64,000 nt of DNA from Candidatus Latescibacterota bacterium (GTDB lineage Bacteria; Latescibacterota; UBA2968; UBA8231): positions 362,077-426,076 of the forward strand of contig CBDCXV010000010.1 of NCBI GenBank assembly GCA_965223905.1. The letters are read 5' to 3'. Below are positions 36,758-43,388 of the stretch, piece by piece. The notes under the pieces are model-generated. The model searched no databases, was not told the DNA's origin, and saw only the letters and a program-made list of their open reading frames with translations. Made by a program: the position numbers and the translations under genes. Position 1 is the first letter of the stretch, and each line of letters opens with the position of its first letter.

Positions 36758-37208
36758 CTATACCCAGCGGGCGGATGGATCAGGAGGGCGAATCGGCAAA
36801 GGAGGGGGTGTCTGATCCGGACAGTCGGCTGGAAGGGTGTAGTCTCCCAGTTCGGGTTCGAGGTAGGTAAGGCCATATGCAACAGCCATTCGGGAGAATG
36901 GCCCTCTACCATCGAGGGAGTCGTAGTCATCGGGTTCCGGTAATGCTGCCACCGGGTAGCGTACGTACTGCTGAGTAAGCTGTCTCCACCAAGGTCTCGC
37001 GAAGGCCTCCTGTGCCCCAACAACCTCGGCTCCACCACCAGTGAGAAATACCTCCACTCGATGCCAAGGACCTTCCTTATGCAGATGTTTGTATGCCTCC
37101 GTCCAGACGGGTCGAGCTTCCTTGTGAATCATTGACAGAATCTTCTTTACACCATCTACCAAGTCCAGCTGCGTCCCCCGCCGCAGCCCGTTGATCTTCT
37201 CACTGATC
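36758..37208 (-). pseudogene. Hsp70/actin-fold ATPase, C-terminal part (gene split by IS insertion)
   Basis: Contains the adenosine-motif-like VFLTGGGAEV. The upstream reading frame continues to the IS boundary as ISEKINGLRRGTQLDLVDGVKK. Confidence 0.75.
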
Positions 37209-38783
37209 GGGTGTCTTAGCTGATTGTTACGGTTTCGGTGGTTGTTTTTAGGTTTTCTCGGTACTGCTGAAAGACCCGGTCAAGCGTTCCATTGTACAAG
37301 GCGCAGCGCAGGGCCAGAATGGCGTTGCTGTTTTCCTTATACCACCAAGCGCCCGACCGTTTCAGACGAACGTGGCCGATGAAGCGATGCGCCGATTCGA
37401 TCGCCCCCGACCCGATCGGGTATCCGCCCTTGCGATGGCTGCCGAAATCGACCTGGTGCAGTCGCTTTTGCAGGTAGGTCAAGGCCGTGCCGATGGCCTC
37501 TCCGGCCTCTTCCGAGAGCGGCTGCATGCGCTGCAGACCCCAGACCACGCCGCTGCCCTCGCCGCAGAACAGGCGCGCCAGGGTCGCTTCCAGCCAATGG
37601 GCAGCACGCGCCGCATCGGCGCCGTATTGGGCCTCGGCCACCGCGTGCAGGTAGCTGCTGCAATGGTAGTAGTCGAGGATCTGACGGGCGCTCGGGAACA
37701 GCTCTTCCACCCACTTCCAGATCCACGGAGCGCCATCTCCGATGGCACACAAGCGCACCTGATCCTCCGGGATCAGCCCCGCCTCCTTGACCTGGCGCAA
37801 GGCCGCGCCGAAGGCCTGTTCGTTGCCCATCTGGTGCCAGGAGATCAGCTGCTCGATGCGCTCATCGTCTATCAGGTAGAAGCGAAAGCCCTTGGCTTCG
37901 TGGTATTCCCCCTGCCAACGCCTTCGCCGAGCCCGGCTCTTCTTGCGTCCGGGACGGGTGCCTTTGGCGGTCTGGGGACGACTGGGCACGTCGGCCGCGT
38001 CGATGGCCAACACCACGATCGGCCGCCACTTGCGACCGGCGGCGGCTTGCGCAATGCGATCCTGGATATCGGCCGCGTCCGGACACACCTGCAGCACGTC
38101 CAACGACCCGGTCTGTTGCAGCACCTCGTGAATCACACAATCGCTCATCGACGCGTCGGTGAGCTCGTCCAACAGTTCGGCGGCGCGCCGGTGGGGCATC
38201 TCCAGCCCCAGCTTGACCCCGGCCTGCTGCACGTCCCACTGCTTGCGCTGCGCCGACAGGCCCAGGGCCTCGTCCAGCGGATAGAACCCGTGGTGACAGC
38301 CAACGCAGTAGAAATAGGGACGCTCCAAGGTCACCGGCCCGAGCAGCGTCTCCACCGTGCGCGAGCGAGACGGGCGCGCTCGCAGCAGGCCTTTGCACTT
38401 GGGGCAGGCCGCCTCTTCCTGGGCCAGGAAATGGCCGTGGCGGCGTTCGACGAAGGCTTCCACCAAGGCCGCGGTGAGCCCGGAGCGCTCTTGAGACATC
38501 GCCGCGGTGATCTCCATCAACGTCGGCGCACAAGATCCGCGCTCGCTCATTTGCGTCTCCACCCGATCCAGCCATTGGTCCAAGGCTTCATGCGCCCGGC
38601 TTCGAAAGCGGTCCTGACTCTGCCGCTCCTGAAAAACTTCCAGAGAGAGAATCGCACTCATCGCTCCCCTTCTTTCTGAAATCAGGGGAGCGCGCCGCAG
38701 GGGATGCGGAAAAAGAAAGCAACTTACTGTAAAATATACACATACGCACCTGAATTGCGCTATAACAATTACTTAAGACGCCC
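37209..38783 (-). mobile_element. complete 1575-bp DDE insertion sequence (ISKra4-like by recollection) with 8-bp target-site duplication
   Basis: Imperfect terminal inverted repeats GGGTGTCTTAGCTGATTGTTACGG and GGGCGTCTTAAGTAATTGTTATAG. Direct repeats CACTGATC at 37201-37208 and 38784-38791. Confidence 0.85.
37216..38661 (-). CDS. IS transposase (DDE type with N-terminal zinc ribbon; ISKra4-family-like)
   Basis: 481-aa intact ORF filling the IS, with CPKCKG...CVGCHHG. The family name is from memory and was not searched. Confidence 0.8.
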   Translation of the reverse strand: MSAILSLEVFQERQSQDRFRSRAHEALDQWLDRVETQMSERGSCAPTLMEITAAMSQERSGLTAALVEAFVERRHGHFLAQEEAACPKCKGLLRARPSRSRTVETLLGPVTLERPYFYCVGCHHGFYPLDEALGLSAQRKQWDVQQAGVKLGLEMPHRRAAELLDELTDASMSDCVIHEVLQQTGSLDVLQVCPDAADIQDRIAQAAAGRKWRPIVVLAIDAADVPSRPQTAKGTRPGRKKSRARRRRWQGEYHEAKGFRFYLIDDERIEQLISWHQMGNEQAFGAALRQVKEAGLIPEDQVRLCAIGDGAPWIWKWVEELFPSARQILDYYHCSSYLHAVAEAQYGADAARAAHWLEATLARLFCGEGSGVVWGLQRMQPLSEEAGEAIGTALTYLQKRLHQVDFGSHRKGGYPIGSGAIESAHRFIGHVRLKRSGAWWYKENSNAILALRCALYNGTLDRVFQQYRENLKTTTETVTIS

Positions 38784-42900: not shown

Positions 42901-43144
42901 CGGTGTCTGCAATGAATTGTACTTGATCACCGGGTTTGAACTTTGGCCCCTTCGGGATTTTCTGTTTGCCACGGATACGTCGATAACGCTCGACAATATG
43001 GGGGACTACCTCACTTGCCGGGCGCATACGCGCAATTTCTTCGCCGGTAAGTTCCCGTGTGTCCGGATCGGCGGCGATGGCAGCACGGATTTCGATGTCC
43101 TCCTCTTTTGTTGGGAGAACCATTCTATTTTTGTCTTTTGGCAT
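39878..43144 (-). CDS. fusion protein: BrnA(DUF4415)-like N-terminus + Tudor/SH3-like domain + SNF2-family helicase + C-terminal region of about 370 aa with unknown function
   Basis: Start taken at the ATG at 43144 (MPKDKN...). [41 protein letters not shown] matches the BrnA pattern. SNF2 motifs present: [37 protein letters not shown] and [37 protein letters not shown]. Confidence 0.8.
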   Translation of the reverse strand: [1088 protein letters not shown]

Positions 43145-43388
43145 ATTCGCGGGCCTCGCTTCTGGTGGCCTTGCGCAGGCTGATAATTCGGGTGTCCCTG
43201 CTCTGGTCTGCGAAGACAACAACGTGAAGATTTGCGCCGATAAAACCCGTGGCGATCCAGCGGGATTCGGCGTGATCTCCATCCATATCAACTACAGCGT
43301 TTTCCCACTCAAATGCCTCCATGTCGACAAAGTCCACGCCATGTTTCGTCAAATTGCCTCGCCGTTTGTCTTCGTCCCATTGGTACAT
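43125..43388 (-). CDS. brnT: BrnT-family (DUF497) ribonuclease toxin
   Basis: YQWDEDKRRGNLTKHGVDFVDMEAF...RWIATGFIGANLHVVVFA...RIISLRKATRSEAREY is a full-length BrnT signature. The stop overlaps the downstream ATG by 20 nt. Confidence 0.85.
   Translation of the reverse strand: MYQWDEDKRRGNLTKHGVDFVDMEAFEWENAVVDMDGDHAESRWIATGFIGANLHVVVFADQSRDTRIISLRKATRSEAREYAKRQK

Follow-up and report, generated by a model that had tools for sequence, protein, structure and literature searches.

The 64,000-nucleotide stretch of a Candidatus Latescibacterota bacterium chromosome analyzed here (contig CBDCXV010000010.1; hereafter the window) carries, at positions 36758–43388 of the minus strand, an island of three genes encoding a BrnT toxin, an SNF2 helicase with a BrnA-like N-terminus (BrnA′) and an ATPase resembling the Hsp70 nucleotide-binding domain (NBD). 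The core of this operon is a widespread and unnamed pair, composed of a RapA/DrmD-like SNF2 translocase and a translationally coupled Hsp70-NBD-like ATPase. The operon was acquired horizontally by the Latescibacterota chromosome, and its ATPase gene has been knocked out in this genome by a recent ISKra4 insertion. We give a probability of about 0.6 to the overall explanation, in which a hitherto undescribed defence module built around a helicase has been equipped in this lineage with an RNase toxin tethered to it. That the module is real, conserved and conflict-related appears quite probable; the specific mechanism of a gated toxin, which is set out below, is proposed only tentatively. The original prediction, made from the sequence alone, of a single operon forming a candidate undescribed defence or conflict system is supported. 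As an SNF2-based defence-island module, it is new in its obligate partner and in the way a toxin–antitoxin (TA) toxin is attached to it, while the kind of helicase is already known.

The conserved pair of SNF2 helicase and Hsp70-fold ATPase

The island comprises the following features, given in the order of transcription:

43125–43388, minus strand: brnT, 87 aa, its final 20 nt shared with the start of the SNF2 gene
42953–43144, minus strand: BrnA′ segment, residues 1–64 of the SNF2 protein, a homologue of the N-terminal half of BrnA, which does not bind DNA
39878–43144, minus strand: SNF2 helicase gene, 1088 aa, ATG at 43144
38784–39921, minus strand: 5′ part of the Hsp70-NBD-like ATPase gene, codons 1–379, ATG at 39921, 44-nt overlap with the SNF2 gene
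37209–38783, minus strand: ISKra4-family insertion sequence (IS), 1575 bp, which lies outside the system and inactivates the third gene
36758–37208, minus strand: 3′ part of the Hsp70-NBD-like ATPase gene, codons 380–526 plus stop

Both predicted overlaps, of 20 nt between brnT and the SNF2 gene and of 44 nt between the SNF2 and ATPase genes, were verified, so that the three minus-strand genes are coupled as had been described. A scan of the operon (~5.1 kb without the IS) for promoters and terminators gave counts no better than chance. The composition of the segment also agrees with the prediction of low-GC DNA inside a GC-rich host: the island has a GC content of 53.9%, compared to 62.9% for the IS, 63.2% for the entire window and mostly 62–70% for the flanking 600-nt windows. 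Its neighbours on the two sides are genes for a creatininase and a 2-hydroxyacid dehydrogenase. One protein encoded in the flanks is 93–95% identical to proteins from metagenome-assembled genomes of Candidatus Latescibacterota, which identifies this as the phylum of the host.

The synteny of the second and third genes was assessed from both sides. A full-length homologous helicase, C-terminal region included, adjoins the ATPase in all 17 full-length GTDB loci found with the ATPase profile, and the helicase adjoins the ATPase in the seven metagenome loci that could be retrieved (7/7). With a profile of the helicase C-terminal region, the ATPase gene was found directly downstream in 14 of 14 assessable loci (at least 30% identity to the C-terminal query). 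The original prediction had allowed for fortuitous adjacency of the genes; for the SNF2 and ATPase genes the counts obtained from both genes rule this out, since the two adjoin wherever a locus retrieved with one or the other could be assessed. Two cyanobacterial loci are the only ones with the opposite gene order. One further candidate locus (L020), a match of 66 residues without an SNF2 gene in its vicinity, was treated as spurious.

Overall, about 40 distinct pair loci were found in at least 14 phyla of bacteria and archaea. Cultured carriers of the two-gene core include Devosia rhodophyticola G2-5 (L010; NZ_CP118247.1, near 3.13 Mb) and Phormidesmis priestleyi ULC007 (L007). The carriers include Latescibacterota, Desulfobacterota-type bacteria, Nitrospirota, Synergistota, Cyanobacteriota, Alpha- and Gammaproteobacteria and Gemmatimonadota, and further Verrucomicrobiota and their relatives, Planctomycetota, Bacteroidota, Caldisericota, Marinamargulisbacteria, Methanosarcinaceae and Bathyarchaeia. 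A word-indexed search returned 128 relatives of the ATPase, all of them unnamed, and an exhaustive profile search gave 622 cluster representatives with a threshold of E ≤ 1e-30, or 2266 when this was relaxed to E ≤ 1e-10; no homologue was found in IMG/VR viral contigs, PLSDB plasmids or INPHARED phages. Association with the ATPase follows helicase relatedness: all helicase relatives with at least 38% identity have it, and sister clades at 33–37% identity are mostly without it, their helicases being solitary or followed by a TmtA-like gene. In Firmicutes, the sister-clade RapA-like SNF2 genes of Proteiniclasticum and Neobacillus (L067, 5637–10223, and L073, 9195–13697) have no ATPase, and a gene for a 1500-aa TmtA-like (Tiamat) protein follows.

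In the 1088-aa helicase, Pfam recognizes SNF2-rel_dom and Helicase_C, and helicase motifs I (GLGKT), II, III and VI are present and invariant across the family, which bears out the claim that they are intact. A Tudor-like beta-barrel (residues ~70–122) precedes the SNF2 ATPase core (~165–720), as anticipated; both were recovered by profile scans and by an AlphaFold2 (AF2) model compared with Foldseek. The model has a mean predicted local distance difference test (pLDDT) score of 75, and its top match is E. coli RapA (E = 6e-38 over ~1050 columns). The C-terminal region of about 370 aa, which had been called unassignable, can now be assigned: given the whole-length structural alignment to RapA and the match of a profile of the final 360 residues, for which RapA is the sole PDB match, albeit a weak one, residues 721–1088 correspond to a RapA-like spacer and C-terminal domain. 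This part includes a long coiled coil (residues 976–1067) and ends in a strongly conserved C-terminal strand (AAGILEV). Among defence models, the PADLOC DrmD model PDLC02623 matches end to end (2e-172, residues 69–1039), and the models of BrxH (1e-74), HmaA (3.5e-58; helicase domains) and DpdE are matched as well. The NCBIfam scores stay below their cut-offs, with 344 bits for DISARM_DrmD (cut-off 610), 174 for DrmD_b (cut-off 950) and 234 for RapA (cut-off 576).

The third protein belongs to no family in Pfam, NCBIfam or PADLOC, where only sub-threshold matches to MreB-like_C and FtsA were obtained. Its identification as protein B of the PADLOC candidate system PDC-M61 was considered and rejected, since the match covers 43 residues around the phosphate-2 motif (2.7e-6, 24 bits), i.e., positions 329–371 of a 588-position model. 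The predicted Hsp70/actin fold was confirmed by modelling a 99%-identical intact homologue with AF2 (pLDDT 82, predicted template-modelling score 0.79). The top 50 Foldseek matches of this model are all members of the Hsp70 superfamily, mostly the NBDs of DnaK, BiP and Hsc70, with E-values down to 1e-13, target-normalised template-modelling (TM) scores of ~0.6 and identities of ~15%; the best PDB matches of the ATPase profile are mortalin and DnaK. Moreover, the motifs GIDFGTS (phosphate-1), PESVA (catalytic Glu), DIGAGTTD (phosphate-2), GGGA (adenosine) and AVAYG vary little or not at all among 37 members of the family. The first ~75 residues are basic and disordered (~90 had been estimated), except for a short conserved N-terminal helix whose codons overlap the end of the helicase gene.

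The ATPase has no Hsp70 substrate-binding domain (SBD): the model contains no beta-sandwich, Pfam HSP70 is not matched, and the protein ends ~45 aa past the NBD in a proline-rich tail. Longer variants of 590–911 aa, the cyanobacterial ones among them, were scanned with Pfam, and their extensions yielded only an N-terminal WD40 domain in the relative P0080 and no effector domain. WD40 beta-propellers occur as Pfam domains in the long N-terminal extensions of P0080 and P0084, and the ~900-aa relatives P0306 and P0310 also have long N-terminal extensions. The cyanobacterial ATPases with reversed gene order (L007, 6020–8290, and L011, 3112–5793) carry extensions of 250–400 aa with no Pfam match.

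The toxin, the grafted antitoxin segment and natural knock-outs

BrnT matches the whole Pfam profile BrnT_toxin (PF04365) at 2.6e-22 (79 bits, cut-off 34.5) and, when aligned with six plasmid BrnTs, retains each of the 16 invariant residues. The BrnA-like N-terminus proposed for the helicase was borne out by BLASTP, in which helicase residues 8–64 align with residues 7–64 of a 103-aa annotated BrnA from a Komagataeibacter plasmid (L025) with 47% identity over 58 aa (E = 5e-15). The Pfam BrnA_antitoxin profile matches this segment only weakly (E = 0.21, profile positions 1–34 of 68). In BrnA, the ribbon-helix-helix (RHH) DNA-binding domain is C-terminal (PMC11980606). This half is missing from the BrnA′ segment, and in the alignment with canonical BrnA the SNF2 protein stands in its place: the chain runs on into KFKPGDQVQ, which is the exact start of the unfused helicase relatives (KF.PGDQVQ). 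The fusion has therefore kept the non-DNA-binding half of BrnA, and a whole motor replaces the RHH domain. The overlap between brnT and the fusion gene is similar to the overlaps of canonical brnT–brnA pairs.

BrnT was found only with helicases of 1088–1089 aa that are 74–100% identical to that of the window. The complete trio is present in four retrievable loci, namely the window and L021, L022 and L023, with the same 20-nt and 44-nt overlaps, and the proteins of the last three are 60–89% identical to those of the window. Three equally close relatives (L001, P0125 and P0127) have neither brnT nor the BrnA′ extension, and a remnant of BrnA′ was looked for upstream of the unfused helicase in L001, where none was found. 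The trio had originally been proposed as one operon, and as such it recurs in these loci; the unit of conservation is the SNF2–ATPase pair, because brnT is limited to one sublineage while its close relatives do without it. Judging from this distribution, brnT and BrnA′ are an add-on specific to a Latescibacterota-type sublineage.

All parts of the trio have been under purifying selection, as indicated by ratios of non-synonymous to synonymous substitution rates (dN/dS, calculated pairwise among the trio loci) below 0.45 for each. The values are 0.29–0.42 for brnT (against the L022 and L023 orthologues), 0.12–0.37 for the BrnA′ segment, 0.06–0.16 for the rest of the helicase and 0.25–0.30 for the ATPase.

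Nevertheless, only L022 is fully intact among the four trio loci. In the window, as had been noted, the island is itself a target of IS insertion. The ISKra4-family element interrupts the third gene after codon 379; it has 21-nt inverted repeats at 37209–37229 and 38763–38783 and is flanked by an 8-bp target duplication, GATCAGTG, with copies at 38784–38791 and 37201–37208. Its transposase gene (38661..37216) scores 250 bits against NCBIfam transpos_ISKra4 (cut-off 205), and the IS occurs as a single copy in the window. The 3′ part of the gene that it separates (codons 380–526) carries GGGA, the adenosine motif, and RMAVAYGL, both of which the family conserves. When the IS and one target copy were removed in silico, an in-frame open reading frame (ORF) of 526 aa ending at 36758 was obtained, whose product is 100% identical to P0242, a protein encoded free of the IS on two metagenome contigs (L114 and L115). 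Both contigs have the same flanking genes as the window and one GATCAGTG at the junction, i.e., they represent precise empty sites; between the L114 island, which lacks the IS, and the window, the identity is 99.94%. With empty-site alleles this close, the insertion is recent and the reconstruction of the ORF exact. In addition, a helicase 100% identical to that of the window sits with an intact ATPase on a 3.69-Mb contig. Just 3′ of the ATPase stop codon, the window (~36700–36757) and L114 (4864–4912) show a length difference of ~49 bp.

The other two damaged loci carry independent lesions. In L023, an IS630/DDE_3-type insertion (14537–15640) splits the ATPase gene at about codon 447 and leaves a C-terminal remnant at 15643–15891. 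In L021, brnT (6535–6791) has a 1-nt deletion near codon 32 that lies outside a homopolymer and causes a frameshift (an assembly error is possible), and the fusion helicase and the ATPase are intact. Two IS insertions and one frameshift among four loci, small as these numbers are, suggest that the armed version is costly, as an abortive-infection device would be, and would fit a system that has been disarmed time and again.

These lesions bear on two alternative readings of the toxin. The first is a tripartite system of the toxin–antitoxin–chaperone (TAC) type, in which the Hsp70-like protein would be needed to keep the fused antitoxin functional; in its favour, the operon couples a toxin gene with one for the protein that bears the antitoxin and a third for an ATPase of chaperone fold. 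We consider it extremely improbable. In the window and in L023 the ATPase is disrupted while brnT and brnA′::SNF2 are intact, indicating that neutralisation of BrnT does not depend on the ATPase (unless brnT is silent), and chaperone dependence of the TAC kind was rejected on these natural knock-outs. The pair, moreover, occurs toxin-free in dozens of loci, and known TAC chaperones are SecB-like, whereas the third protein has the Hsp70 fold.

According to the second alternative, brnT–brnA′ is a selfish addiction device, in which the antitoxin–helicase fusion hinders loss of the island and the toxin is never released on infection. BrnTA is indeed a classical type II TA system (PMC11980606). The fusion couples neutralisation to retention of the SNF2 gene, and the restriction of the add-on to one sublineage, whose close relatives named above manage without it, is also in favour of this reading. 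However, post-segregational killing needs a labile antitoxin, which a large and stable protein fits badly. The loss of the RHH domain also removes the usual autoregulation, and in L021 brnT is frameshifted while the remainder is intact. Addiction is in our view unlikely; it would also be compatible with a defence role of the core rather than exclusive of it.

Genomic context, proposed function and related systems

Genes directly adjoining the pair were compared with PADLOC defence models. The matches at E < 1e-20 are as follows:

L003: HmaC
L004: GmrSD/HEC-05
L005: a second DrmD/BrxH-like SNF2 and a type IIG restriction–modification (RM) enzyme
L006 and L036: HsdR
L014: BrxC
L019: DrmMI-like protein
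L034: type II methyltransferase (MTase_II)
L037: GajB-like helicase
L039: DruE (an adjoining, weaker DruK-like nuclease match was left out of the count)
L042: PDC-S11

In L014 (2672–14943), from a metagenome-assembled genome of Desulfocapsaceae, the pair is inserted in a BREX locus, with brxC (1708 bits) on one side and pglX (1461 bits) on the other. The trio of L023 is surrounded by type III RM, HicB and MNT/HepT genes.

This context raises the question of whether the pair is a helicase accessory of DNA-modification systems of the DISARM class 1, BREX, Hma or ARMADA type, which in the window would have been left as an orphaned fragment. The end-to-end match to DrmD and the matches to BrxH, HmaA and DpdE are in line with this, as are the position of the pair between brxC and pglX, its adjacency in L005 and L019 to a second SNF2 and to a methylase resembling DrmMI or type IIG enzymes, and its HmaC neighbour in L003. 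On the other hand, the neighbours vary (RM types I, II, III and IV, Druantia, Gabija-like and PDC-S11) and the pair alone is constant. Several loci, among them the window, L001, L021 and L022, are without modification genes in their vicinity, and the NCBIfam DrmD cut-off is missed by a wide distance (344 versus 610 bits). It should be noted that unrelated defence genes are commonly embedded in BREX loci. We therefore regard an accessory role as quite unlikely.

No DISARM, BREX or methylase gene is present across the 64 kb of the window: among the 57 other window genes, the DISARM core components DrmA, DrmB and DrmC have no match at E ≤ 1e-5, and DrmMI, PglX or other methyltransferases have none either. 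Elsewhere, L005 and L019 are the sole loci in which a DrmMI-like gene adjoins the pair, and L014 is the sole locus with pglX beside it. As for Hma, both HmaB and HmaC are missing from the window, and an HmaC-like gene adjoins the pair only in L003. A pooled PADLOC scan of the 57 other genes gave single matches to mad3 (1.9e-28), PDC-M72A (1.7e-18), AriA (1.9e-10) and mad8 (3.7e-10).

The pair might instead serve a housekeeping or stress function unrelated to mobile-element conflict, namely RapA-like recycling or remodelling of RNA polymerase with a dedicated Hsp70-like cofactor. RapA is the closest solved structure over the full length of the helicase, the N-terminal Tudor-like and C-terminal domains included, and Hsp70-fold proteins are typically chaperones. 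Such a function is nonetheless very unlikely for genes that occupy a low-GC island, have a different genomic context in each genome, are scattered patchily across distant phyla and both domains, lie next to defence genes and tolerate natural knock-outs; the ATPase, moreover, has no SBD, and the helicase stays below the RapA equivalog cut-off.

Several points weigh against a defence module armed with a toxin. Its defence role is one that we infer from the neighbourhood (guilt by association), and the evidence for this context comes from other loci and not from the window's own neighbours. The latter are metabolic (creatininase, 2-oxoglutarate oxygenase, metallophosphatase and 2-hydroxyacid dehydrogenase), so that the original picture of a typical defence island surrounded by TA and IS loci is thin here; what stands of it is one DUF4258/DUF2283 pair 3 kb off and IS remnants more than 15 kb off. 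In favour of the defence role, 12 of 20 adjoining genes at the other loci match PADLOC models at E < 1e-20, compared to 1 of the 57 other window genes used as control (Fisher p = 4e-8), a contrast that is indicative and not a formal enrichment score, because the 20 neighbours were picked by hand and not systematically sampled. The DrmD match and the methylase genes beside the pair in L005, L014 and L019 would also fit a pair that is an accessory to systems based on modification. No nuclease or other effector is recognisable in the core pair, which thus offers no evident way to stop a phage. The binding of BrnA′ to BrnT is assumed by homology, and the AF2 confidence of this segment is low (pLDDT 41–63). 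The damage in three of four trio loci could reflect the decay of a useless element instead of repeated disarming. Finally, although a full-text literature search found no description of an SNF2–Hsp70-like pair or of a BrnA–helicase fusion, an earlier one may stand among the subscription-journal papers, most of which that search did not reach.

For a defence module armed with a tethered toxin, we propose the following scheme. The task of the SNF2 motor would be to scan DNA or transcription complexes, with the Hsp70-fold ATPase as its regulatory or sensing partner; ATPase variants fused to WD40 domains, such as P0080, are compatible with a sensing role. In this way the module may restrict phages or other mobile elements. 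One sublineage would then have captured a brnTA cassette, whereby the toxin-binding half of BrnA swapped its DNA-binding domain for a whole helicase, and the BrnT RNase would be held inactive on the N-terminus of the motor by BrnA′. Activation of the motor would release or unmask BrnT and lead to translation arrest, an output resembling abortive infection. The ATPase may act upstream of toxin release, and its loss would in that case be a safe way of disarming the system. A physical complex of the SNF2 protein and the ATPase, the neutralisation of BrnT by the fused peptide and its triggered release are inferred elements of this scheme.

In its most general form, the pair would be an autonomous immune module of bacteria and archaea, in which a remodeller-type motor is controlled by an ATPase of the actin/Hsp70 superfamily, as a counterpart of the eukaryotic association of SNF2 motors with actin and actin-related proteins (Arp), and which can be armed by grafting an antitoxin peptide that turns a type II toxin into a conformationally gated effector. 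We hold this generalization to be possible, though on balance doubtful. The eukaryotic INO80, SWR1 and BAF complexes, which are among the structural matches of the helicase core, likewise combine an SNF2 motor with a dedicated partner of the actin/Hsp70 superfamily. The likeness is an analogy only: the partner here is nearest to the Hsp70 NBD and not to actin, and no HSA-like docking helix was identified.

PADLOC and other profile searches did not place the trio in an already named system. The gene contents of DISARM, BREX and Hma are not those found here, the ATPase has no model, and the literature search was negative within the papers that it covered, in agreement with the prediction that the combination is absent from described systems. 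The closest systems by helicase are those of DrmD (DISARM class 1), BrxHI/II (BREX), HmaA (Hma) and ArmA (ARMADA), which belong to the same RapA-like SNF2 group and also lie in defence islands. They differ in that no methyltransferase, DrmA/DrmB (DUF1998) or phospholipase D (PLD) partner accompanies the helicase here, its constant partner being the Hsp70-NBD-fold ATPase, which occurs in none of them. For DISARM in particular, the PADLOC model is matched from end to end, yet the NCBIfam equivalog cut-off is missed. E. coli RapA (HepA), the Swi2/Snf2 ATPase that recycles RNA polymerase, shares the Tudor-like barrel, ATPase core, spacer and C-terminal domain, but with 20% identity; the gene studied here, unlike rapA, is mobile, patchy, paired with an ATPase and attached to an antitoxin peptide.

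On the side of the toxin, the trio shares with BrnTA of Brucella abortus (PF04365/PF14384) an intact BrnT, the toxin gene in first place, an overlapping downstream partner and the N-terminal half of BrnA, and differs in that the RHH DNA-binding and autoregulation domain is exchanged for a 1024-aa helicase. A survey of fusions in the RelE/ParE superfamily includes BrnT–BrnA fusions and no helicase fusion (PMC11980606). Regarding the ATPase, Hsp70/DnaK chaperones share the NBD fold and the phosphate-1, phosphate-2 and adenosine motifs but not the SBD, the lid or Pfam HSP70 membership. Proteins with Hsp70-like NBD and SBD regions, e.g., CnuD, occur in the CoCoNuT/McrBC type IV restriction systems (PMC11090510). 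CnuD, too, is an Hsp70-fold ATPase that has been recruited, in a capacity other than that of a chaperone, to work with an NTP-driven motor acting on nucleic acids, in a system with a predicted role in defence. By its description, however, it keeps the SBD, has degenerate ATPase motifs and partners the McrB GTPase, while the ATPase described here has no SBD, retains its catalytic motifs and partners an SNF2 protein.

Should the pair prove to be a defence system, SNF2-based immunity would gain a widespread architecture, and the mechanism of the pair would have to differ from those of DISARM, BREX and Zorya, since it has no DNA-modification component or obvious nuclease. Screens based on E. coli and Bacillus may have missed the family, because it resides almost entirely in uncultured lineages and archaea and has no plasmid or phage counterparts. 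The BrnA′::SNF2 fusion, for its part, may be viewed as a natural experiment in which a TA pair has been rewired as the effector of a larger machine, the antitoxin trading its DNA-binding domain for a motor.

Other features of the window

About 3 kb from the island, a small low-GC patch (~54%) at 33229–33761 on the plus strand contains a likely pair of DUF4258 (RelE/ParE-fold toxin) and DUF2283 genes. DUF2283 is recognized by Pfam (2.5e-11), and the DUF4258 call is weak and was taken from the orthologue in L115.

A repeat family was also found in the first part of the window. Two copies of 1358 bp (8988–10344 and 12136–13493) are 99.9% identical and flank a gene with a low GC content at third codon positions (10849–11670), and three shorter copies of ~600 bp or less (2821–3427, 18030–18622 and 20953–21131) are 95–96% identical. 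The repeat encodes a GNAT-like N-terminus joined to a second, transposase-like portion, which we take to resemble a C-terminal fragment of an IS91-type transposase.

A second low-GC segment (28400–30200, 53–57% GC) includes an ORF of 358 aa (28845–29921) with a DM9 repeat (Pfam, 4.8e-6), and this ORF is conserved in L114 between or beside the neighbours that it has here.

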